Source: Bacteroidia bacterium (lineage in GTDB: Bacteria; Bacteroidota; Bacteroidia; UKL13-3). Taken from it: DNA of 64,000 nucleotides. A program made the translations under genes and the position numbers. Below are positions 1 through 12,674 of this stretch, piece after piece; position 1 is the stretch's first letter, and every line of letters begins with the position of its first letter. Location of the stretch: positions 1,149 to 65,148 of the forward strand of contig JAIBAK010000007.1 of NCBI GenBank assembly GCA_019695215.1, written 5' to 3'. Below the pieces are notes generated by a model. That model did no database searches. It was not told where the DNA came from and was given only the letters and a program-made list of their open reading frames with translations.

Positions 1-2
1 GA

Positions 3-2676
<2,674 letters not shown>

Positions 2677-2691
2677 AATAAACTATAGCAC

Positions 2692-2726
2692 AAAAAAGCC
2701 CGGTGAGATTCATCGGGCTTTTTTAA
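2692..2726. terminator. Bidirectional rho-independent terminator shared by eno (+) and the convergent minus-strand operon
   Basis: AAAAAAGCCCGGTGA-GAT-TCATCGGGCTTTTTT has a 9-bp stem with an A6 run before it and a T6 run after it. It overlaps the stop codon of the minus-strand gene ending at 2723. Confidence 0.75.
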
Positions 2727-3406
2727 TCCTTTATTGGGATTAAACGGATATTGTCTATATCAATAAGAATAAAGCTTTTCACGGTCCCTTTCATCTTCTT
2801 AAATGTAATAATATCACCGTTAGGAATACCGCCAATATATATGAAATCTTGCCGTTCGTTAAGGAAAAATGTGATTGTATCTGTAAGTGTCACCCATTTT
2901 CTTTTTGGGAAAAAAGAGCTGTCGGGCGTATAAAGTGGATGATGAGTGCCACATGAGTTTTCCTTCCCAAATTCATTTGGATTTTTTAACAATCCATAAT
3001 TCAGTAGCCGATAGTTTAATTTATTGGTAGCGTACTTTGAATCCTCAGAAGTTCGCACATCTATTTTCAAAACAAAACGCCTTGGCCCAGAATTCCCCCA
3101 ATTTGTATCCAGAGGAAGTACTATATCCCCTTTTAAGTTTGCATCAGCATGTTTGTATAAACTGTTTACATGCCATAAATAGATAACCGAATAAACTTCC
3201 CCGTCCGAAGCTGTATCAGATACTGGTTTACCTTTACTTTCTTTGACAAAACCAGCAGGCCCGTTTATATAATAAATGGGCCCATTAACAGAATACATCT
3301 CCGCATTTTCCACGTAAGTTTCAAAGCTCCCATTCTTCACAATATTCTGCGATGTTACACTAAGACTGATCATGCAACAAAGAAAAACTGCTAAGGTTTT
3401 TACCAT
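2723..3406 (-). CDS. Hypothetical secreted protein with an N-terminal signal peptide. It is the last gene of cassette 1 and a candidate immunity protein for the upstream effector-like gene.
   Basis: MVKTLAVFLCCMISLSVTSQ is a signal peptide. Its start overlaps the end of the upstream gene by 7 nt. No recognisable catalytic motif. Confidence 0.55.
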   Translation of the reverse strand: MVKTLAVFLCCMISLSVTSQNIVKNGSFETYVENAEMYSVNGPIYYINGPAGFVKESKGKPVSDTASDGEVYSVIYLWHVNSLYKHADANLKGDIVLPLDTNWGNSGPRRFVLKIDVRTSEDSKYATNKLNYRLLNYGLLKNPNEFGKENSCGTHHPLYTPDSSFFPKRKWVTLTDTITFFLNERQDFIYIGGIPNGDIITFKKMKGTVKSFILIDIDNIRLIPIKD

Positions 3407-3969
3407 CTTGTATTAGTAATTATTCTACCAATTTGTTTAAATCTAGTGTTAGAAGTGCCACTACAAAAAATCTGAATCTCCACCTTTGATACATTATCAA
3501 CAATAAACTCATTACTCTGTTCAACCTCAGATTGTGTAATATTAGTAATTGTAAAGCCCCCTGCCCATCCGCTTCTTGGTTTCTGTGTTATTATACCACG
3601 AGAAAACTGTGATCTAACATTATCAGCCCGATTCTGTGATAAATTAACTCGCCTTAATAAATCTGCTAGCCCTTCCGGTGTTTCATAATCAATAGTTGCA
3701 GAAAGAACCATTTTACTCGTTATATAAACAGCATCTTCACTAAGGATAAGGGAATTGAGCGTGTTCAGACCTGCCAGTTGAGTCTCATTAAGAATAGCAC
3801 TCCAATTTGGAAAATTTATAGACGCTATTGGCAAGGGGTCAAGGGGTCTTGTCAAAAAATTTCCATCCCTATTTTCTGGTGCTATCCCAAAATCAGCCTT
3901 AAAGCTAGAGAGCCAATCTTCTGATAACCTTCCCCCTTTTGCCCACGGATTTTTAAATTCGAATGCCAT
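3400..3969 (-). CDS. Effector-like protein E1. It has the conserved N-terminus MAFEFKNPWAKGG shared with E2 and E3, followed by a unique C-terminal region of unknown function.
   Basis: Its N-terminal 12 aa and the junction with the upstream gene (stop, 2 nt, ATG) are conserved with the genes at 8268-8831 and 9797-10324. No signal peptide. Confidence 0.6.
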   Translation of the reverse strand: MAFEFKNPWAKGGRLSEDWLSSFKADFGIAPENRDGNFLTRPLDPLPIASINFPNWSAILNETQLAGLNTLNSLILSEDAVYITSKMVLSATIDYETPEGLADLLRRVNLSQNRADNVRSQFSRGIITQKPRSGWAGGFTITNITQSEVEQSNEFIVDNVSKVEIQIFCSGTSNTRFKQIGRIITNTRW

Positions 3970-3971
3970 AA

Positions 3972-5654
3972 CTATGCGGGATTTGAGGTTGGATTACAAT
4001 TACACCCGCTTTGAGGCACATCGCAACAATCAGTGAATACCTTTTTGTATAAGGTGGCCTTTTCAGTTGCATCGGTAAGCCCTTCTATTATATCAATAGC
4101 TTGTTGTTTAGCTACGTTTTCAAGATTAGCCTGCACAACAGCTGCATCCTGTAACTTGAGGTTGAAGCAATCCAAAGCCTCGCCCTGTCCCAGCAAAGCA
4201 TCAACAATTACTGAGTCAGTAGGTAACACGCGGCTTTCTACACTTTTTATTATACCATTAACTGTAATCCCCTCAGCCGTCATAGAAAGTCCTGTGTTTT
4301 TACGGAAGTAATCTTCAGTAAATTTCACACTACCTGTAGCGGAATCGTAAACATTCTCCGTTCTTTTTTCATAAAAGGTTTGCCTGGTTCCGGTGTAATC
4401 ATATACACTGTAATATTGGTCAACTATATCCTTAAAAACGTTGTCGGCATCTGTGGTGTTATTGAAAATACTTTTAAGTAAGGCTAATAATCCATCAACT
4501 TTAACTACTTGTTTAGTTTCTTCATACCCATTGGTATAAACAAATGAAACATCATCCAGATAAGTTATTGTAATGAGTTCCTGATTGAGTTGACGAAAAA
4601 CAAAATTGAGTACCCGACTTTTGTTTATATTTTCCAATATCCTAACAATACTGGTTTCGGTAGAGGTGGTTTCTGAGGTAGAGGTCTCTGTATTGATATC
4701 AAGTTTTCGGGATACCACTGATTTCTGAACCTGCTTTGATATTGCATTTGCCAATAATTTAATGTTCTCAGCTCGCAGCCCATTCATTGTAACTCCATTG
4801 GAGGAGCTACTCGAAAAGGAAGCTGCTCCTTTGCCACCGAACAATGGTATATTTAAGCCTGAACCGCTCTGTGAAGCCATATTATATCCCCCTGACTCTG
4901 TATGACTTTGAAGGCTGTCAATCTGAAGCATCTTTTCAAGCTCCTGGGTACTATCATTTGTTAAAGAATCAATAACATTCTGATAGTCTTTTTTGCTTTG
5001 GGTTGTTTGCTTATAACTCTTAATACTGATGGTGGTTTTCTCGCCCGGCAGCAATGTAAAAGTCTTAACAGTTTCTCCCGCACCGTAATCTCCAAGGTAA
5101 GTATTTACTCGATAATGCTCTATTACTGTAAGTCTTGGAACTGCACTAGCTGGTTGTTGCCTGAATTCAATTTTTTGATTGCCCATAATATCCACAACTG
5201 TTACAGGCATTCCATAAAGAGATTGAACTGCAATGCTACTTACAGCTTGTCCGGCAATAGTATAATCAGCAACCGGACTTGAAGTAGGGGCTGATTCAAA
5301 ACCCACCAAACTTGCAAGTGAATACTGTGGCGCAGCACTTACTGTTGGAGTTTCCTCTTCTGAATTTACATTTACAATATTGGGTGTGCCTACAGCTATA
5401 AAGTTATTTGCCATACGCGCGGTAATAGTTGAAGCATCCAGTCCGGCAACTATATCATAGTAGTTACCGCTAGGGGGCGAATCAAAACCTGCACCAGTTT
5501 TAAAATAGCTGCTGTTCACATCTAAGGGAATGTAAGCATTGGCAACAAACCCATTTGTTTGCGGAATGTTGTAATCAAGTTTGGGTGTTGAACCTGTTCC
5601 CCAATCGGTCATTGGATCTTTGTTGATGCAGCTTGATGGTGTTGTTTCTGGCAT
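3972..5654 (-). CDS. Hypothetical 560-aa protein. No signal peptide, Ser/Thr-rich, with a Cys-rich C-terminus ...LYKKVFTDCCDVPQSGCNCNPTSNPA.
   Basis: Long ORF with coding-like composition. Its last ~33 codons are duplicated in the 51-aa fusion ORFs at 8834-8989 and 10327-10482. Confidence 0.6.
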   Translation of the reverse strand: MPETTPSSCINKDPMTDWGTGSTPKLDYNIPQTNGFVANAYIPLDVNSSYFKTGAGFDSPPSGNYYDIVAGLDASTITARMANNFIAVGTPNIVNVNSEEETPTVSAAPQYSLASLVGFESAPTSSPVADYTIAGQAVSSIAVQSLYGMPVTVVDIMGNQKIEFRQQPASAVPRLTVIEHYRVNTYLGDYGAGETVKTFTLLPGEKTTISIKSYKQTTQSKKDYQNVIDSLTNDSTQELEKMLQIDSLQSHTESGGYNMASQSGSGLNIPLFGGKGAASFSSSSSNGVTMNGLRAENIKLLANAISKQVQKSVVSRKLDINTETSTSETTSTETSIVRILENINKSRVLNFVFRQLNQELITITYLDDVSFVYTNGYEETKQVVKVDGLLALLKSIFNNTTDADNVFKDIVDQYYSVYDYTGTRQTFYEKRTENVYDSATGSVKFTEDYFRKNTGLSMTAEGITVNGIIKSVESRVLPTDSVIVDALLGQGEALDCFNLKLQDAAVVQANLENVAKQQAIDIIEGLTDATEKATLYKKVFTDCCDVPQSGCNCNPTSNPA

Positions 5655-5692
5655 GATAAGTTGGTTTTAAATTAGTAATTAAGAATAGATAA

Positions 5693-6682
5693 TTATGAAC
5701 TATAGTTATGAATAACTTTATGATTAAACACATAGCCGTTGCGAGTGGTAACGGTTACGTAATACAATCCGGAGCTTGAAATAAAAGGGAGTGCCAGCAT
5801 ATTTCTATTATCAATATGGGAAGATTGAACAACCCGTCCCATTAAATCTGTGATAACTATTTCAGTAATTGCATCCTGTTCACACAAATATTTTATTTCA
5901 AGATTCTCCATTACCGGGTTAATAATTTCAGGTATGACAGAACTTATTGGTGAAGAAACTCCTGTCGGGTTAGCTTTACCTGCCAAAATATTTATCTCCG
6001 CCTGTGTTAATATCCTGCTATAAAATCTGGCTTCGTCAAGTTTACCGTCATACCAATGCCCCATATTTGTATTAGTTAAACTCTGTGGTGTCGCATCGGG
6101 CACTTTCCCCGCGAACGAAACAGTCTTCACTTTTGCAGCGTCTATATACAAATCAATTACGGAAGTACTTCTGTTCACGTTTATTGATAGATGATGCCAC
6201 TGATTATCTAAAAGGGCTGTATTGGTATAGAGCAATTCCGCCTGGTCCGACAGAAAACTTGCTCTAATAATAAAATCAAATTGCCCCTTTACAAACTCAT
6301 TTGCAATTAAACTGACTCCCCTGTCATAAGGAGCATCAGTAGCATATAAAAAATCAATTTCATTTTGGTCATTTGTCATAAACCAGAATGAAATATTAAA
6401 ACTTGTAGAAGTACCAAAGGAGAGTGCTCCGTTAGAAACATTCATTTTTATTGCTGCATCTGATGAAAACAGCAATGCCTGATTTAGGTTGCTTTTTCTA
6501 TCGTAGGTGAAGTTAACTGTCCCCCCGCTGGCTAAAAATTTTGTAACCGTTGCCCCATTACCGGAAGCATCAGAAAGACTATTTGTAAACGGCAAATACA
6601 TAACGAGGCCCTGAGTGAGATCCTGACAGAAAGCATATCCTGAAATTGTCATTAAGATGATGACCAAATAAACTCTTTTCAT
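5693..6682 (-). CDS. Secreted LamG / concanavalin-A-like lectin domain protein with a C-terminal sorting domain for type IX secretion (T9SS)
   Basis: Signal peptide MKRVYLVIILMTISGYAFCQ. The LamG-like core includes DNQWHHLSINVNRSTSVIDLYIDAAKVKTV and GKLDEARFYSRILTQAEI. The C-terminal ~70 aa (...GLYYVTVTTRNGYVFNHKVIHN) match the T9SS CTD pattern. Confidence 0.7.
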   Translation of the reverse strand: MKRVYLVIILMTISGYAFCQDLTQGLVMYLPFTNSLSDASGNGATVTKFLASGGTVNFTYDRKSNLNQALLFSSDAAIKMNVSNGALSFGTSTSFNISFWFMTNDQNEIDFLYATDAPYDRGVSLIANEFVKGQFDFIIRASFLSDQAELLYTNTALLDNQWHHLSINVNRSTSVIDLYIDAAKVKTVSFAGKVPDATPQSLTNTNMGHWYDGKLDEARFYSRILTQAEINILAGKANPTGVSSPISSVIPEIINPVMENLEIKYLCEQDAITEIVITDLMGRVVQSSHIDNRNMLALPFISSSGLYYVTVTTRNGYVFNHKVIHNYSS

Positions 6683-6783
6683 AAGTACAAACAGTTAATA
6701 TTTTACCCAAAGTTGAAAATAATATTTCACATATGCAACTTTTTTCTCAAAAATTGTTAACTAAGATATACGGCCATTACGAT
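6626..6783 (-). promoter_or_regulatory. Conserved upstream block, copy 1. It covers the putative promoter/operator, the 5'UTR and the first ~19 codons. The 18-nt core AAAATYGTYAACTAAGAT lies at 6749-6767 (plus strand).
   Basis: Near-identical to 8933-9090 and 10426-10563. The core motif recurs at 11148-11165. Each copy sits 62-85 nt upstream of a minus-strand ATG. Confidence 0.55.
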
Positions 6784-6848
6784 AAATCCATCCTGCACAT
6801 GGTGGGGCTATGAGTTTAGGTCAATAACAAAACGGCCAGGCTTTACTA

Positions 6849-7520
6849 CTACTCCTTCCATGCTTGCTGAACTTCCTTCAACGCTAATTCCATTAACAAA
6901 AAAATTCGGTTAACAGTCCCCCTTAATTTTTGCAGTTCATCAGGCAGCTCTTTTACGGGATGTGGTCCATCAAAATAAAAATACCAAAAACTTTTTATCT
7001 CCTTATCACTACGCTTAGCTAATAATTCCAGGAAAACACTAGTATCAGATTTTAATTTCTCCTGCATTGCGTGCTGAAAATAACCCACACCATCAGCATA
7101 CCACCTGCCATTGATACTTATATCAATCATTCGGTTGTAATATTGATTTTTGGGTATTACAGTTAATTTAAAAAATGCTTCTACATATAAATAAGCTTTG
7201 TTATATAAGGGGCTGTTGAAATCAGAAACCGGCTCTCCTAAAGGGTCTTTGTCTGAGTATCCAAATAAATGGTTGAACAAGTTAAACGTATTTGGAAAAG
7301 CAGCAAAATATTCTTGTTGATACTTAATTGTATATGGTGAGGAAGATACTTTTTGATATGCCCTTTTTAATTGCTCCGCTTTTTTTATTCCGTTTAACTG
7401 AGTATCCGCAACATTTGCATTTGCAATATTTCGGCAAGTTATATTCGCTGTACAACTTGAAAACAATTGACTAAACAATACTATAATAAATAATTTCATA
7501 TCATCGAATGGGTAGGTCAA
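6849..7520 (-). CDS. Hypothetical lipoprotein or secreted protein and candidate immunity protein. The real start is probably the internal Met at 7499 (MKLFIIVLFSQLFSSCTA).
   Basis: Signal peptide with a lipobox-like SSC. It lies between effector-like gene E2 and the upstream block of cassette 1. Confidence 0.5.
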   Translation of the reverse strand: MTYPFDDMKLFIIVLFSQLFSSCTANITCRNIANANVADTQLNGIKKAEQLKRAYQKVSSSPYTIKYQQEYFAAFPNTFNLFNHLFGYSDKDPLGEPVSDFNSPLYNKAYLYVEAFFKLTVIPKNQYYNRMIDISINGRWYADGVGYFQHAMQEKLKSDTSVFLELLAKRSDKEIKSFWYFYFDGPHPVKELPDELQKLRGTVNRIFLLMELALKEVQQAWKE

Positions 7521-7557
7521 AAATGGTCATCGTTGGAACGAGTTAAGATATTTCTAC

Positions 7558-8256
7558 CTATTGAGGTTCTACTTTGAACCACCATTTAGATTTAGGATGC
7601 CCGCTTGTAATCTTAAAAACTAATTTGCTTACTCCCTTCAAAGGTATAGTTACAGTTTGTATACTGTTAGTATTAGTCATTTCTGTTTTATAAAGTTGTA
7701 ACCCATTTTTATCTTCTACTATCAGCTGGTCTGATTCATTGTAAAAATGATAACTCAACCTTATCGCTGTTACTTTGCCAGTGAGTTGCAGTTCTTTTAC
7801 GCTGTTTCCTTCGCCAAGATAGGAATCCTCTTTATTAGCATCTGGAATTCTTTCATACTTTTCAACGATACACTCTCCATAATTAAAACAGATTTTTAGT
7901 AATTTACCTGTACCTCCTTTTATATACAGGGTAAGTTCCGCACTGGAATCGTGAAAGGTGACGTTCGTAGTAAACTTCCTGTTCTTTAAGGTTATTTTTT
8001 TATCCTTGGGATCATATATCCAATTCCCTTGCTCTATTGTTGGAATTTGGGTAGTAACACTGTAACAATCATTAAGAATTTGGTAATTGCCATCAGGATT
8101 AAATACTAACATATCAGGACACTCAACTGCTTGCTTTTTACTATTCTCAACACCCTTATATTGCCATCTACCGATTATTTTATGAGAAGCATTTTGAGCA
8201 TAGGCAATACCGCTTATCAACAATGCAATCAGAATAAAATTTACACCTGTTTTCAT
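7558..8256 (-). CDS. Hypothetical secreted protein with a signal peptide. It lies immediately downstream of the M23 effector and is a candidate immunity protein.
   Basis: MKTGVNFILIALLISGIAYAQ is a signal peptide. It is co-oriented with E2 at an 11-nt spacing. Confidence 0.55.
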   Translation of the reverse strand: MKTGVNFILIALLISGIAYAQNASHKIIGRWQYKGVENSKKQAVECPDMLVFNPDGNYQILNDCYSVTTQIPTIEQGNWIYDPKDKKITLKNRKFTTNVTFHDSSAELTLYIKGGTGKLLKICFNYGECIVEKYERIPDANKEDSYLGEGNSVKELQLTGKVTAIRLSYHFYNESDQLIVEDKNGLQLYKTEMTNTNSIQTVTIPLKGVSKLVFKITSGHPKSKWWFKVEPQ

Positions 8257-8267
8257 ACTTATATCGA

Positions 8268-8831
8268 TTAGGGTCCAAAGAAATATGGTGTTGGGTCAAC
8301 CCATTTGCCTCCTATCATTACCTGAACATGAATATGTGGTGTTATATCCTTGGGATAACCCAAATCTCCTAAATTAGCGGCCGTTCCTATTAATGTTTTT
8401 CCCCCAATTACAGTGTATGGACTCCATGCATTGATTTCACTAGGAATATTTACATATAAAATTCTCACTTTCTCAATCTCAATTGCAGAATCTGAAGGTG
8501 TAATATCTATCATTGGTTTTCCAGATGATGAGCCAATATAATTTACCGCTTTCCCAGTTACTGGAGATACTAAATCTTGCCCAACTATGGTTAAAATATC
8601 TATACCCATATGTTTACGGGCACCTCCGCTACGAGGAGCACCAAAGTGACCATTCCCATATGCATCCTGCCCCCTCAAAGCACCTCCACTTGGGTTGAAT
8701 AATAAGCTTACATCCGTGATATTCCTTTTAATAGGTATAACTGCCCCCTCTAGTGCCGTACCATTTATTCCAAACCATTTATCAAACTCTCTGTTACCTT
8801 TTCCCCAAGGGTTTTTAAATTTCAATGCCAT
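8268..8831 (-). CDS. Effector-like protein E2. Conserved N-terminus MALKFKNPWGKGNREFDKWFGINGTALEG... fused to a C-terminal M23 (LytM/lysostaphin-type) metallopeptidase domain.
   Basis: H-x-x-x-D motif (RKHMGIDIL) and an HxH motif in TPHIHVQV, aligned with the M23 consensus GPHLHFEV, at the spacing typical of peptidase M23. N-terminal 36 aa almost identical to E3. No signal peptide. Confidence 0.7.
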   Translation of the reverse strand: MALKFKNPWGKGNREFDKWFGINGTALEGAVIPIKRNITDVSLLFNPSGGALRGQDAYGNGHFGAPRSGGARKHMGIDILTIVGQDLVSPVTGKAVNYIGSSSGKPMIDITPSDSAIEIEKVRILYVNIPSEINAWSPYTVIGGKTLIGTAANLGDLGYPKDITPHIHVQVMIGGKWVDPTPYFFGP

Positions 8832-8833
8832 AT

Positions 8834-8989
8834 TTATTCGGGATTTGAGGTTGGATTACAATTACACCAGCTTTGAGGAACATCGCAACAATAAGTAAAC
8901 CCCTTTTTGTATAAGGTGGTGGCATGATTAGTACAGAAAAGAGAACCCGAAATTGTAATTAAAAGCATGACCAAATAAATTCTTTTCAT
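8834..8989 (-). CDS. Unannotated 51-aa fusion ORF: MKRIYLVMLLITISGSLFCTNHATTLYKKGFTYCCDVPQSWCNCNPTSNPE. It joins the signal peptide of the LamG gene to the Cys-rich tail of the 560-aa gene.
   Basis: Read on the minus strand. ATG at 8989, TAA at 8834-8836, then AT, then the E2 ATG. Residues 1-19 match the LamG N-terminus and residues 24-51 match the 560-aa C-terminus. Its first 81 nt are identical to the ORF at 10327-10482. Confidence 0.6.
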   Translation of the reverse strand: MKRIYLVMLLITISGSLFCTNHATTLYKKGFTYCCDVPQSWCNCNPTSNPE

Positions 8990-9090
8990 AAGCACAAACA
9001 GTTAATATTCTATCCAAAGTTGAAAATAATATTTCACATAAGCAACTTTTTTATCAAAAATTGTCAACTAAGGTATACGGCCATTACGAT
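8933..9090 (-). promoter_or_regulatory. Conserved upstream block, copy 2, with the core motif at 9056-9074
   Basis: Aligned with copies 1 and 3. It sits upstream of the fusion ORF and E2. Confidence 0.55.
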
Positions 9091-9168
9091 CGAGAACTCC
9101 CCCGGCAATATATGTGGATGATATTTGTTTACATGCATTAATCTCGGATTATTCAAGCTTTGCTGCTA

Positions 9169-9768
9169 TTACCAAGTGTAATTTTTTATATCAAACCTTT
9201 CAAGAAAGGTTATTTTCCATCTTCCTTTTTCCTTTTTCGCTTTAACAAGGTAATCAAAATCGCCTCCCCATGTCCAATAATAGGTTGCAAAGTCATTATC
9301 CAATTTAATATTCTTAATCATTAATCTACTCCATATATCCGAAGGGTAATCCTGACAGTTACACCATTCGTCAGCATCATTTCCGTAAGGAGGTAATTCT
9401 CCTTTATAGTATTTAACCTGGTTATCATTTAGTTCTTTGTCTAGGTACAACGCAATTTTCATGTAGTTATCTATAAATTCCTGAGTAAAGAAATTTGTTT
9501 GGGATAATTCTTCCATTCTGGATTTCTGAACAAGCCAATCAATCCGCTCATAAATGCTGTCATTATCACTTGTAAGAGGGAAATCTCTATTGGTGTCAAC
9601 CTCATGCCACTTCAACAAATTCTTTGTTAAAGCCAAAAGTTCTAAACTATCAGTAGATAACTGTATATAGGCATGGCTATTTGTACCTGTGTCTTTCTGA
9701 GTATGTACACAACTAAAACTAATTACAAGTATTGAAACTGCTGATACCAGGCCATTAAATAATTTCAT
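9169..9768 (-). CDS. Hypothetical lipoprotein and candidate immunity protein for E3
   Basis: MKLFNGLVSAVSILVISFSCVHTQ is a signal peptide with a lipobox Cys. It lies directly downstream of E3. Confidence 0.55.
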   Translation of the reverse strand: MKLFNGLVSAVSILVISFSCVHTQKDTGTNSHAYIQLSTDSLELLALTKNLLKWHEVDTNRDFPLTSDNDSIYERIDWLVQKSRMEELSQTNFFTQEFIDNYMKIALYLDKELNDNQVKYYKGELPPYGNDADEWCNCQDYPSDIWSRLMIKNIKLDNDFATYYWTWGGDFDYLVKAKKEKGRWKITFLERFDIKNYTW

Positions 9769-9796
9769 ATTCTATTCCTCCTTAAAGGGTAAGTGT

Positions 9797-10324
9797 TCAT
9801 GAGTTATTGTCAGTCCAACGGAATATTGCGTACATAGAATTTCTATACCCACTTCCGGGAAATTCGTTTTTCTCCTTAAAATCACTTAACCATTGATTAC
9901 CGTTGTACATATCAATATGACCATACTGGCTACCCCCGGGATATGGTTGAAACACCCTTATATCTCCTTTAATAGGTGAATAATTTGTACTACTTAAAGT
10001 ATTGAATCCCCAGCCCTGCAAAAAAGGTCCATAATCTTTTGCGGATACTGGATGAGGGTTTGTATTTATACCGCCCGCTTCTAAAGCTAATCTGACATAT
10101 TTAGCACATGCGTGCTGAGAAACTACTTTAGCATTATTGTCTAACCAGTTTACAGCTTTGTCAATATTGAAACTCGATTGGAATCCACCCACATTAACAT
10201 TACCACCATCCGAAATATCTCTTTTAATAGGTATAACTGACCCCTCCAATGCCGTACCATTTATTCCAAACCATTTATCAAACTCTCTATTACCTTTTCC
10301 CCAAGGATTTTTAAAGGAAGCCAT
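9797..10324 (-). CDS. Effector-like protein E3. Conserved N-terminus MASFKNPWGKGNREFDKWFGINGTALEG... with a C-terminal putative CHAP/NlpC-P60-like Cys-His hydrolase domain.
   Basis: A candidate catalytic Cys (SQHACAKYV) and a candidate His (GDIRVFQ...GHIDMY) sit at the spacing seen in CHAP amidases. The domain call is tentative. Confidence 0.55.
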   Translation of the reverse strand: MASFKNPWGKGNREFDKWFGINGTALEGSVIPIKRDISDGGNVNVGGFQSSFNIDKAVNWLDNNAKVVSQHACAKYVRLALEAGGINTNPHPVSAKDYGPFLQGWGFNTLSSTNYSPIKGDIRVFQPYPGGSQYGHIDMYNGNQWLSDFKEKNEFPGSGYRNSMYAIFRWTDNNS

Positions 10325-10326
10325 AA

Positions 10327-10482
10327 CTACAGAGAATTTGAGCTGGGATTACAATTACACCCACTTTGCGGCACATCGCAACAATCAGTAAACACCTTTT
10401 TGTATAAGGTGGTGGCATGATTAGTACAGAAAAGAGAACCCGAAATTGTAATTAAAAGCATGACCAAATAAATTCTTTTCAT
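10327..10482 (-). CDS. Unannotated 51-aa fusion ORF, copy 2: MKRIYLVMLLITISGSLFCTNHATTLYKKVFTDCCDVPQSGCNCNPSSNSL
   Basis: Same architecture as 8834-8989. The stop TAG at 10327-10329 is followed by 2 nt and then the E3 ATG. Confidence 0.6.
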   Translation of the reverse strand: MKRIYLVMLLITISGSLFCTNHATTLYKKVFTDCCDVPQSGCNCNPSSNSL

Positions 10483-10563
10483 ATGCTAAACTTTAAGATT
10501 ACAGTCAAAGTTGAGAATAATATTTCACATTCGCAACTCTTTTTAAAATCGTCAACTAAGATG
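10426..10563 (-). promoter_or_regulatory. Conserved upstream block, copy 3, with the core motif at 10545-10562
   Basis: Aligned with copies 1 and 2. Confidence 0.5.
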
Positions 10564-10612
10564 CATATATTGTTACAAGCGTTATTTTGACCAATACCTC
10601 AAAAATGTATGC

Positions 10613-11086
10613 TTATTTATTAGGTGGTAGAATAAAATAATTAGTTAAAAAGATTCTGAAGCATTCAATTTGAGCACCCACTGCTCCAATATCCGCATCA
10701 GTATTATAAAAAGAAGGATTTTGCACCACACTACAAAACGACTCATAAAGCGACCTGTGAGAATTGGTATTATATTGTTGTTCAACTTGAGCAAAAACAG
10801 AGTCAAGTGTATTTTTTTTAATCAACCTGACTAACGGGGTGCCCTTGTTATAAAGAGAAAGATATAAGTCAAAGTACTCCTCATGAATAGTATCTCCATT
10901 AGTTGAACTTTTGTGATAAACTTTGAACAAATCTTTAAATACATTGAACGACTTAGTATCCCTTTCTAATTTTATTGCAACTCTGGGAAGTAGCGTATCA
11001 TTCAAGCAAACGAGTCTTTCCTGCGGATAGCAGATAGCTATATGGTGCAAACTGCCAAAAAGGAAGATGAAAAATAAATGCTTCAT
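10613..11086 (-). CDS. Hypothetical secreted protein with a signal peptide, preceded by a fourth copy of the AAAATCGTCAACTAAGAT motif. Possibly an orphan immunity-like gene.
   Basis: MKHLFFIFLFGSLHHIAICYPQ is a signal peptide. The motif at 11148-11165 lies 62 nt upstream of the ATG. Confidence 0.5.
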   Translation of the reverse strand: MKHLFFIFLFGSLHHIAICYPQERLVCLNDTLLPRVAIKLERDTKSFNVFKDLFKVYHKSSTNGDTIHEEYFDLYLSLYNKGTPLVRLIKKNTLDSVFAQVEQQYNTNSHRSLYESFCSVVQNPSFYNTDADIGAVGAQIECFRIFLTNYFILPPNK

Positions 11087-11222
11087 TTTAATCCCATAAA
11101 GTGAATAATACTAATGCAAGCTACTAAAAGAGCAGCGCATTTCATATAAAATCGTCAACTAAGATAGACGCCCTGTTTATAACCCAATGCCTGAGTTAAA
11201 GCAATAACCTTAATTTTGCAAA

Positions 11223-11522
11223 GTGCAGGTAAGGGAAAAAATACAGCAGCATAAGTTCAAAATCATCACTCTGGTGTTTTTGGTATGGATGACTTTTTTT
11301 GATAAAAACAATTTTATCGACCAGTACCACCTGCGTGCGCAGTACCAAAGTATTGTTGACGAACGCGATTATTACGTTACCCAGATTGAGCAGGCCAAAA
11401 AAGAACGCGAACAGCTTTTTACCAATAGCGAGGCTCTTGAAAAATTTGCCCGCGAAAAATACCATATGAAAAAGGATGATGAAGAAGTCTTCATCATGGT
11501 GCAGCCTGAAAAGAAAAAATAA
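11223..11522 (+). CDS. ftsB: Septum formation initiator family protein (FtsB/DivIC-like)
   Basis: A single TM helix (IITLVFLVWMTFFDKNNF), then a coiled coil, then the conserved LEKFAREKYHMKKDDEEVF tail. Confidence 0.7.
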   Translation: MQVREKIQQHKFKIITLVFLVWMTFFDKNNFIDQYHLRAQYQSIVDERDYYVTQIEQAKKEREQLFTNSEALEKFAREKYHMKKDDEEVFIMVQPEKKK

Positions 11523-11609
11523 TTCCACTTTTTACCGGTTTTAGTTTTGGTTGTTTATCCGGCAAAATGAAACGACATTTGTTTTGTTTCTTTTTTAACA
11601 CAACTCATC

Positions 11610-12674
11610 ATGAAAAAAGCACTTCTTTTTATCATCGGTTTATATGCAGGCTGCCTGTGTGCGCTTGCCCAATTACCCAAAATTAAGTTACCGGCAGGCT
11701 CAGGTGCCATGGCTGCTGCTGCTGTACCCGGACCGGGCTCATACCATGCAGCACGTCCGGTAAATCCTAAAATCAACAATATTTTGCCCCGCTATTACAC
11801 AGCAACCGATGGAATGAATTACACCGCTGCCGAGGCTCCATCGGGCGAGTTGCAACTGAATAACTTTGATAAAATTCTTTTCGGTAAAGCACGTATAGAT
11901 AAAAATGGGTCGGCTGCCCAGCTTAGCACCACATTTAATGCAGGCGAAAGTATTTACGGACGTGCGTTTATGCGCACCTGCATGATGAACTACAAAACGT
12001 ACGGTACCCAAATGAATACCGACCCGCACAAATGTTTCGATGGCCGGTTTGAAGTAAACTATTCCATTGACGGAAAAGACATGGGTGTATTTATGACCAA
12101 CAGCCTTGACGGGGAACTGGAAAACAAAACAACCTTTACCATTATTGTGGTGGGCACCGGTGACGATGCACAGGCCAATAATGAAGCGTTTATTCAGGTA
12201 CTAAACAACCTTACCGATGGCAGCCACACCATACGCATGGTGGTGTGGGCCACACAAGGTCAATTCATTTCGGTTGACCCTGTAGCCATGGGAGAATTTA
12301 TCTATGTAAAAGGTGCCGGTTCAGGCAAAGTGGGTTTAGGGCGAAACTTCAGTTCGGTAAAAGATGAAATGCCCGACAATGCCGCGCTCAAAGCAAAATG
12401 TTTGAAAAAACTAAACGACCATGCCAAAGCCAACGGATGGAAAGAAACTTTTACCGAAGTAAAAATTACCGATGAAGACTGGAGCACGTTGCGCAATGAA
12501 GTGACCTCAGTAATTACCGGCCGCATCATAAATATTGCCGCCAAAGCTACCTGGCCCGATGGACATTGCACCTACCAGACTTTTAGCATGTTTTCGGATT
12601 ATGACGGAGCGGCTTATTCAAATGTGGTTTCGGTGCGCGGCATTGGCGAACAAACGAAAATAGATTGCAACTAG
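11610..12674 (+). CDS. Hypothetical secreted protein
   Basis: MKKALLFIIGLYAGCLCALAQ is a signal peptide. A long ORF with no recognisable motif. Confidence 0.5.
   Translation: MKKALLFIIGLYAGCLCALAQLPKIKLPAGSGAMAAAAVPGPGSYHAARPVNPKINNILPRYYTATDGMNYTAAEAPSGELQLNNFDKILFGKARIDKNGSAAQLSTTFNAGESIYGRAFMRTCMMNYKTYGTQMNTDPHKCFDGRFEVNYSIDGKDMGVFMTNSLDGELENKTTFTIIVVGTGDDAQANNEAFIQVLNNLTDGSHTIRMVVWATQGQFISVDPVAMGEFIYVKGAGSGKVGLGRNFSSVKDEMPDNAALKAKCLKKLNDHAKANGWKETFTEVKITDEDWSTLRNEVTSVITGRIINIAAKATWPDGHCTYQTFSMFSDYDGAAYSNVVSVRGIGEQTKIDCN

Follow-up and report, generated by a model that had tools for sequence, protein, structure and literature searches.

A strain-variable candidate effector-immunity island built around an uncharacterised protein family in a Bacteroidia genome

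Toxin delivery between bacteria has, in Bacteroidota, been attributed to T6SSiii, a type VI secretion system (T6SS) variant found in this phylum, to MACPF toxins (BSAPs), to bacteroidetocins, and to TANFOR toxins with a putative T9SS (type IX secretion system) link. We describe an island of about 8.4 kb in a 64,000-nt stretch of DNA, designated the window, from Bacteroidia bacterium (UKL13-3; assembly GCA_019695215.1, contig JAIBAK010000007.1, positions 1,149-65,148 of the forward strand). The island encodes P560, a 560-aa member of an uncharacterised family, and three effectors, E1, E2 and E3, which begin with a short leader of the pattern F-x-N-P-W-G/A-x-G (the NPW leader) and are accompanied by candidate immunity genes. 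The explanation we favour, at a probability of roughly 55%, is that this is a horizontally acquired, strain-variable island for interbacterial antagonism, with P560 as the dedicated carrier of the effectors. Coordinates below are window positions, and L-numbers designate related P560 loci or metagenome eno loci.

Rhs and contact-dependent inhibition (CDI, CdiA) loci resemble this island in several ways. They pair a conserved part, for delivery, with toxins that are hypervariable, and the immunity gene comes immediately downstream of the toxin; additional cassettes form arrays in which a piece of the conserved part is retained and could serve as a recombination handle; and the toxins encoded at a single chromosomal site differ from strain to strain. 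The island differs in that toxin and presumed carrier are separate polypeptides at all loci, a stop codon preceding the ATG of the effector by 2 nt in the close clade, and in that P560, which has no Pfam match, lacks YD, Rhs, filamentous-haemagglutinin and PAAR features as well as a signal peptide. The orphan cassettes of the island keep a promoter, a start codon and the leader, and so, unlike Rhs/CDI orphans, may be expressed without recombination. T6SS cargo of the Tae3, Tae4 and Tlde1 types, with the Tai and Tldi immunity proteins, resembles the present system in its enzymatic domains, in effectors that lack a signal peptide, and in exported immunity proteins. Here, in contrast, no T6SS gene is linked in the contexts examined, the effectors have the additional NPW leader, and P560, the obligate neighbour, is unlike any known component or adaptor of a T6SS.

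TANFOR toxins, as we read the class, contain the toxin domain in the same polypeptide. These large Bacteroidetes proteins have a TANFOR domain at the N-terminus and, in most cases, a signal peptide; their immunity genes lie downstream, and they are often encoded beside a T9SS substrate with a C-terminal sorting domain (Jana, Salomon and Bosis 2020, PMC7073777). The island shares with them the Bacteroidetes host, downstream (candidate) immunity genes and a nearby predicted T9SS substrate, in this case a LamG protein with a C-terminal domain (CTD) of the sorting type, encoded directly 5' of P560. It differs from them in that P560 and the effectors are separate proteins, neither with a signal peptide, and in that P560 and the effectors of the island have no significant Pfam match.

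Two further comparisons serve as functional analogies only. In binary AB toxins with a beta-barrel translocator (anthrax protective antigen, PA, with lethal and edema factors, LF/EF; C2; Bin/Tpp), one large component serves several enzymes that share an N-terminal docking element, as P560 might, and the top Foldseek matches of P560 are to pore formers of the aerolysin/Toxin_10 type, a resemblance that is not significant. Binary toxins, however, are Sec-secreted and target eukaryotic cells, whereas the cargo of the island is predicted to act on bacterial peptidoglycan and is accompanied by a candidate immunity gene. Colicin M and pesticin (with its immunity protein Pim) likewise are cytoplasmic toxins without a signal peptide that attack the wall of a target cell, are countered by periplasmic immunity, and are encoded at mobile, strain-variable loci. 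In the island, unlike in these bacteriocins, reception or translocation and killing would be split over two proteins, there is no lysis gene, and no similarity to colicin T or R domains is seen in sequence or fold.

P560 and its leader-bearing neighbours

Among protein clusters at 90% identity, P560 has more than 1,062 relatives; at 50% identity there are 1,805 clusters at E <=1e-3 and 733 at E <=1e-30. A pattern scan of species-representative genomes found a relative in at least 225, mostly from Bacteroidota, where the carriers include Chryseobacterium, Myroides, Flavobacterium and Galbibacter. Beyond that phylum the family occurs in Acidobacteriota, Alphaproteobacteria and Gammaproteobacteria, and also in metagenome-assembled genomes (MAGs) labelled Brocadiaceae and Kapaibacterium.

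We clustered all open reading frames (ORFs) from 83 P560 loci. Only P560 itself is common to them (82 of 83), the next clusters being a Tae4-type effector, in 13 loci, and its immunity protein, in 9. A first-pass annotation, made by a model from the letters of the window, had noted a conserved N-terminal module at the start of each effector; conservation of this leader does reach the family level, but the core that is conserved is P560 and not just the leader. Among 66 non-redundant loci in which an ORF was called downstream of P560, 36 have an ORF there that begins with ...F-x-N-P-W-(G/A/S)-x-G-G... or ...F-W-K-x-Q-W..., and a third leader class, N-(I/T)-W-G-E-x-V-L-D-S-K, is paired with a third type of P560 tail. 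N-terminal conservation thus reaches well beyond this genome, and recent local duplication as the sole cause, which the annotation had named as one possible refutation, was ruled out by conservation of the leader across many genomes. Starts of the form M-x(0-12)-NPW are found in just 45 of 8,320 ATG-initiated ORFs (at least 80 codons, both strands, 83 loci). All 45 lie on the P560 strand, and most are located directly 3' of P560, a pattern not attributable to chance.

The leader is joined to many different domains. Pfam searches with 44 NPW proteins recovered Tae4 (8 cases), Trypsin_2, Peptidase_M15_3, Tlde1 and Glucosaminidase, while many sequences had no match. Taken over all loci, the NPW or FWK leader sits on Tae3, Tae4, Tlde1, M15, trypsin, glucosaminidase, Amidase_3, M23-like and unassigned domains, as is characteristic of polymorphic toxins. 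Of 37 ORFs that follow an effector, 25 start with a hydrophobic stretch near the N-terminus; among the effectors themselves the count is 0 of 38. Orphan effectors behind fragments of the P560 tail also recur, with two in L001 (one Tlde1-type, one of no recognisable type) and another instance in L066, and orphan cassettes that retain a piece of the conserved part are again a polymorphic-toxin property. These data on the leader and on the exported product of the next gene, together with the strain variation at a single site described below, support the polymorphic effector-immunity grammar that the first-pass annotation had proposed.

The class of the leader co-varies with the extreme C-terminus of the P560, or P560 fragment, encoded directly upstream. 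In L001, both the tail and the leader class of the orphans differ from those of the resident full-length P560. Such co-variation fits a docking of the leader to the tail, which would make the tail the probable binding element. At least three leader classes, each paired with a P560 tail type of its own, can be seen across L001 1747-4858, in L011, L014, L016, L036 and L065, and in L031, L045 and L052.

Nine loci that belong to Alphaproteobacteria, Gammaproteobacteria and Acidobacteriota (L038, L040, L044, L049, L050, L054, L070, L080 and L081) are arranged differently: P560, at about positions 10000-11700 of each locus, adjoins a conserved protein of about 350 aa. This partner is encoded immediately upstream in seven of the nine, has no Pfam match, and in L050 contains NPW in its N-terminus. 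No downstream pair of leader-bearing effector and immunity gene is obvious in these nine loci.

Within the window, leader identity amounts to 92% between E2 and E3 (36 residues compared) and to 52% between E1 and E2 (21 residues), so that an earlier description of the leader as identical slightly overstates the case of E1. None of the three effectors has a signal peptide. E3 had been called CHAP-like, and its fold is papain-like/CHAP, but a more specific assignment is possible: it matches PDB entry 4HZ9 at E 5.9e-21, with coinciding CAxYVR and GH motifs in the alignment to chain 4HZ9_A. This entry is Tae3 from Ralstonia pickettii, an amidase effector of the T6SS whose catalytic dyad is C23/H81 (PMC11796386); the catalytic residues align with C73 and H136 of E3. 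Judged by this alignment, in which the catalytic Cys and His are kept, E3 is a bona fide Tae3-family amidase. It also matches a PHROG endolysin family (1.9e-14). E2 is predicted to be M23-like from the motifs HMGID (HxxxD) and HIH (HxH), read from the sequence, and from weak matches to Pfam M23 (E 0.038, short of the gathering score), to a PHROG metallo-endopeptidase (6.7e-4), and to LECT2 in PDB (0.008), which we take to have the M23 fold. E1 has no Pfam, PDB or PHROG match and only three homologues among 5.8e9 sequences, one of which is the identical NCBI MAG protein K1X81_03420.

The genes that follow the effectors encode proteins with signal peptides (I1 and I2a) or lipoboxes (I2b and I3), and their position and export signals make all four candidate immunity proteins. 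BLASTP found no homologue of I2b in other P560 loci. At the far end of the island, a 157-aa product matches, at BLASTP E-values from 1.9e-33 to 4e-6, the immunity-position genes of L011, L022, L076, L005, L031, L026, L068 and L083; for L005, L026 and L076 we checked that this position lies behind an NPW-leader effector, and these three effectors are taken as Tae4-type. The 157-aa gene is therefore homologous to Tae4-associated immunity genes in a window that has no Tae4 effector. The first-pass annotation had left it unassigned; given also the partial upstream block that precedes it, it is probably an immunity gene that has been orphaned, or what is left of a fourth cassette.

Insertion and variation at the eno site

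The island is flanked by plus-strand genes: carA (3-1205) and eno (1387-2676; Enolase_C, 1e-134) on one side, and a DivIC/FtsB gene (11223-11522; PF04977, E 1e-10) on the other. Each of the 12 ORFs in the interval 2723-11086 is encoded by the minus strand, in agreement with the opposite-strand block that had been marked at 2723-11170. G+C content is 0.32-0.42 within the island versus 0.43-0.48 in the flanks. The block of about 8.4 kb is an AT-rich insertion between eno and the DivIC/FtsB gene.

For comparison we collected 80 metagenome loci with an enolase 66-76% identical to that of the window. In 31 of these a DivIC/FtsB-like gene lies 70-555 nt 3' of eno on the same strand, the adjacency that the first-pass annotation had suggested looking for, and P560 is present in none of the 31. 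In L107 (6434-8865), 2.4 kb separates eno from the ftsB-like gene; there is no P560, and the interval may be another insertion at the site.

Three loci with P560 proteins 88-92% identical to that of the window, L007, L087 and L089, have DivIC followed by LamG, P560, an effector and an immunity-position gene at this same site, with a single cassette in each and with eno next in L007. The effector of L007 has 266 aa, is of no recognisable type, and is accompanied by a 145-aa membrane protein; that of L087 has 189 aa, is E1-like, occupies the same position, and is accompanied by a 234-aa protein; that of L089 is a 350-aa Amidase_3 protein with a 178-aa neighbour. The number and content of cassettes, therefore, vary at one chromosomal site, as had been surmised, and the relatives do not carry one non-polymorphic copy, one of the counter-cases considered at that time, since their effectors differ. 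A more distant locus, L091 (P560 59% identical), encodes a LamG-CTD protein, P560, a 470-aa protein and a 379-aa leucine-rich repeat (LRR) protein. Elsewhere, the P560 module of L173 (15733-21701) lies beside Tn7-like genes (TniQ, TniB and a Mu-type transposase), and in L024 (11686-13449) ORFs resembling insertion sequences lie between P560 and the NPW-leader ORF; both arrangements would fit a mobile module.

As transcribed, the island reads: 157-aa ORF; 51-aa ORF, E3, I3; 53-aa ORF, E2, I2a, I2b; LamG, P560, E1, I1. It had been described as three tandem cassettes. The repetition is real, but the cassettes are not equivalent: the island is made up of one complete module (LamG-T9SS protein, P560, E1 and I1), two truncated modules, and one lone immunity gene. 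Each truncated module consists of a promoter and a fusion ORF of 51 or 53 aa, formed from the start of the LamG gene and the end of the P560 gene (LamG'/'P560), followed by E2, I2a and I2b in one case and by E3 and I3 in the other. Table 1 lists the features.

Table 1. Features of the island and its borders, in order of transcription of the minus strand
Feature	Coordinates	Strand	Evidence or remarks
Upstream region of putative orphan immunity gene, with partial fourth copy of upstream block at 11140-11173	11087..11222	-	Repeat family D5, 79%; shared CGTxTATCTTAGTTGACxATTTT
Putative orphan immunity gene, 157 aa, signal-peptide/lipoprotein-like N-terminus	10613..11086	-	BLASTP to immunity-position genes
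Promoter/leader block, copy 3	10483..10612	-	Repeat families D4, D6; alignment
51-aa fusion ORF, LamG signal peptide + P560 tail (ATTLYKKVFTDCCDVPQSGCNCNP...)	10327..10482	-	Repeat D1; tblastn to P560
E3, NPW leader + Tae3-family amidase by sequence (papain-like/CHAP), Cys73/His136	9797..10324	-	PDB 4HZ9; PHROG
I3, candidate immunity lipoprotein, 199 aa, ...VISFSC lipobox	9169..9768	-	Sequence and position; weak DUF3828 match
Promoter/leader block, copy 2	8996..9168	-	Repeat families D2, D4, D5, D6; alignment
53-aa fusion ORF, LamG signal peptide + P560 tail, deletion junction as in 51-aa ORF	8834..8995	-	
E2, NPW leader + predicted M23/LytM-like metallopeptidase	8268..8831	-	Motifs HMGID, HIH; weak profile matches
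I2a, candidate immunity protein, signal peptide, 232 aa, ...GIAYA|Q	7558..8256	-	Sequence and position; weak DUF5004 match
I2b, another exported product of cassette 2, candidate for a second or an orphan immunity protein	6849..7520	-	Lipobox ...LFSSC counted from internal Met
Promoter/leader block, copy 1, 5' of LamG gene	6683..6848	-	Repeat families D2, D4, D5; alignment
LamG/ConA-like protein, signal peptide, predicted T9SS type-A CTD	5693..6682	-	Laminin_G_3 1.3e-14; TIGR04183
P560, conserved core protein of an uncharacterised family, no signal peptide	3972..5654	-	
E1, NPW leader + rare C-terminal domain without family match	3400..3969	-	
I1, candidate immunity protein, signal peptide, 227 aa; start overlaps E1 stop by 7 nt	2723..3406	-	
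Bidirectional terminator-like hairpin between convergent eno and I1	2692..2724	.	Strong; 15-bp stem, A and T runs on either side

The repeated unit noted in the first pass is borne out by three sets of direct repeats. A 167-nt repeat that spans the P560 tail and the effector start occurs at 3965, 8827 and 10320, with 90% identity between copies 2 and 3 and 63% between copy 1 and either of the others. A 158-nt repeat that includes the promoter and the start of the LamG gene occurs at 6626 and 8933 (89% identical), and a 51-nt upstream repeat is present three times at 82-94% identity. Aligned upstream regions conserve the arrangement GTTGC, 20 nt, CAACTTTG, 25 nt, ATG. The Bacteroidetes promoter consensus consists of TTG at -33 and TAnnTTTG at -7; the conserved upstream motif resembles it and may well be a promoter of this type. 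A scan for sigma-70 promoters gave 36 sites against 31.8 in shuffled sequence, which is no excess. The promoter-tail-leader block of about 330 nt, about 90% identical between cassettes 2 and 3, would provide a substrate for homologous recombination through which cassettes could be gained and swapped.

In both fusion ORFs the LamG signal peptide is joined to P560 residues 520-559 at a common junction, ...SGSLFC-TNH-ATTLYKK..., and the 51-aa ORF is 69% identical to P560 residues 520-558 by tblastn. The shared junction suggests, therefore, that a single deletion of about 2.6 kb made the truncated module, which was afterwards duplicated or re-used. In every module of the window, 2 nt separate the effector ATG from the stop codon that ends P560 or the mini-ORF, a spacing compatible with translational coupling of mini-ORF and effector. 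Frameshifting or readthrough that would fuse P560 to the effector was considered and ruled out, as the gap is not constant in the family, where it spans -1 to over 100 nt.

The LamG protein scores 29.9 bits against TIGR04183 (cutoff 23) and 25.4 against the Pfam version of the model (cutoff 27). Its signal peptide, MKRVYLVIILMTISGYAFC, and its Por_Secre_tail are the two marks of a T9SS substrate with a type A CTD, and it is predicted to be one. A LamG gene is found 5' of P560 only in L007, L087, L089 and L091; the LamG protein is a clade-specific accessory outside the conserved core. Positions 1-12000 of the window have no Rfam match. The intergenic region between carA and eno (1228-1363) contains 1.9 copies of a 72-nt unit with 95% match, likewise without a match in Rfam.

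Sequence and predicted structure of P560

The first-pass annotation could match the 560-aa protein to no delivery domain that it could name, and wider searches agree. P560 has nothing significant in Pfam, NCBIfam, PHROGs or PADLOC, no match in PDB sequence and profile searches, and no consistent match when 40 members of its family are searched against Pfam. The literature likewise yielded no description of the family or of the leader, the nearest paper being the TANFOR study (PMC7073777). Three longer homologues, P0144, P0135 and P0141, have 731-754 aa with C-terminal extensions. One extension is a DUF1508 (YegP-like) domain, the sole Pfam match over the curated cutoff, and the other two share a region of about 160 aa that has no Pfam match.

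Two AlphaFold 2 (AF2) models agree with each other, one built from 40 sequences (pLDDT 68.5, pTM 0.62) and the other from 107 (pLDDT 72.2, pTM 0.66). They contain three very long beta-strands (174-201, 349-374 and 468-488), a Ser-, Gly- and Thr-rich helix-loop-helix insert (213-334), a well-predicted C-terminal alpha/beta region, and a 33-residue helix (492-524). The termini, residues 1-31 and 533-548, are predicted with low confidence or as disordered, although few parts of the alignment are as well conserved. Near-invariant positions there are Cys9, P14, Y28 and P31, and the motif YKKVF-xx-CC-xx-PQ (...LYKKVFxxCCDVPQ... in the window copy). The conserved cysteines hint at metal binding, disulfide formation or acylation.

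A Foldseek search of the models against PDB gave no match at E <0.05, the best being 0.054; the top matches, none of them significant, are almost all beta-pore-forming toxins. In BFVD one match is significant (E 7e-7, 465 columns, 16% identity): the protein A0A5K0U6Q4, 642 aa long, which is encoded by Yasminevirus, a giant virus. It was dropped as a functional clue because the protein is itself uncharacterised. The modelled fold thus appears to be without a characterised relative, and both the P560 family and the leader code appear to be undescribed.

Explanations for delivery

Under the explanation we favour, the core unit would consist of P560, made in the cytoplasm, followed by an effector gene and an immunity gene. 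P560 would recognise the short N-terminal leader of effectors that have no signal peptide, probably through the conserved C-terminal tail that is inherited along with the leader, and would then act as carrier or translocator, taking the effectors out of the producing cell and into the periplasm of a neighbour. Peptidoglycan would be cut there, by E3 as a Tae3-type amidase and by E2 as an M23-type endopeptidase, with the activity of E1 unassigned, and sister cells would owe their protection to the immunity protein, exported or a lipoprotein, whose gene adjoins that of each effector. The truncated modules keep promoter, mini-ORF and leader, and therefore a single P560 could load three alternative effectors. 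The fourth module would have been reduced to its immunity gene.

Several observations weigh against this explanation. Neither P560 nor the effectors have a recognisable export signal, and genes for lysis or secretion are missing from the locus. The families to which the effectors belong are classic cargo of the T6SS, and E1 lacks a recognisable toxic domain. The co-variation of leader and tail could reflect co-inheritance alone. Finally, because P560 in Proteobacteria and Acidobacteriota is found with the partner of about 350 aa and with no obvious immunity gene, the family may not be intrinsically antibacterial, and its role in those lineages may be different or ancestral.

As to the route of export, we weakly favour a self-contained one resembling that of a binary toxin over dependence on a T6SS. 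The fullest form of this proposal, that P560 and the NPW-type leader constitute an unrecognised delivery pathway that operates without T6SS, T9SS or Sec, is put forward tentatively. P560 would in that case be a carrier with a new fold, possibly pore-forming, that moves leader-tagged peptidoglycan hydrolases from the cytoplasm of the producer to the periplasm of a competitor; the pathway would be widespread in Bacteroidota, and relatives of the carrier would work with other partners in Proteobacteria, in Acidobacteriota, and in at least one giant virus.

Rather unlikely, in our judgement, is the alternative in which a T6SS encoded elsewhere in the genome has the island as an auxiliary module for effectors, with P560 as adaptor, chaperone or spike-attached carrier and with the NPW leader as a cargo marker analogous to MIX, FIX and RIX. 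The effector domains belong to canonical periplasm-acting T6SS families (Tae3, Tae4 in eight cases, Tlde1), the absence of signal peptides from effectors and P560 combined with exported immunity proteins is the T6SS pattern, and T6SS variants occur both in Bacteroidota and in Proteobacteria, the two groups that also have P560. Auxiliary T6SS modules, however, normally include vgrG, hcp or PAAR, and neither these nor any tss family was found within about 10 kb of P560 in nine Pfam-annotated contexts of about 20 kb, which argues against a classical auxiliary module; nor is any neighbour family conserved across the 83 loci. P560 matches none of the adaptor families DUF4123, DUF1795 and DUF2169, and its presence in MAGs labelled Brocadiaceae and Kapaibacterium also speaks against this alternative.

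We consider it highly improbable that P560 is a self-assembling shell or storage particle, loaded through the leader as a cargo peptide and released by lysis or in vesicles in the manner of encapsulins. One short terminal peptide does occur on unrelated enzymes beside one conserved large protein, and such a particle would account for the missing export signals, but the HK97-fold shell protein that defines encapsulins was not recognised in P560, and the exported immunity proteins and orphan cassettes indicate intercellular antagonism, not storage.

Just as improbable is the view that the cassettes are autolysin or wall-remodelling genes, or remnants of prophage lysis genes, with P560 as an unrelated passenger: the PHROG endolysin and phage metallo-endopeptidase matches of E3 and E2 and the giant-virus structural match of P560 lend it some support, but Pfam and PHROG searches find no phage structural, integrase or holin gene in the island, the order of P560, effector and exported protein is kept across phyla, effector and immunity content varies between strains at one site, an apparent orphan immunity gene is present, and housekeeping hydrolases, unlike these effectors, bear signal peptides. 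A prophage lysis module as such was ruled out by the lack of phage genes.

Polymorphic effector-immunity islands are known as a kind; it is the carrier family and its leader code that appear undescribed. In loci that contain no secretion genes, an unnamed family proves to be the constant partner of cell-wall toxins regarded as classic T6SS cargo. The short leader offers a handle with which to search for new families of toxins and immunity proteins; recognisable domains are lacking in E1 and in several effectors 200-470 aa long. An island with one carrier and three leader-tagged effectors, each under its own promoter, should be a convenient system for the study of cargo selection. If P560 is a T6SS adaptor, it would form with the leader a new pair of adaptor and marker, and would open the way to effector discovery in poorly studied phyla. 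If it is instead an autonomous carrier, the family would represent both a new delivery mechanism and a new fold.

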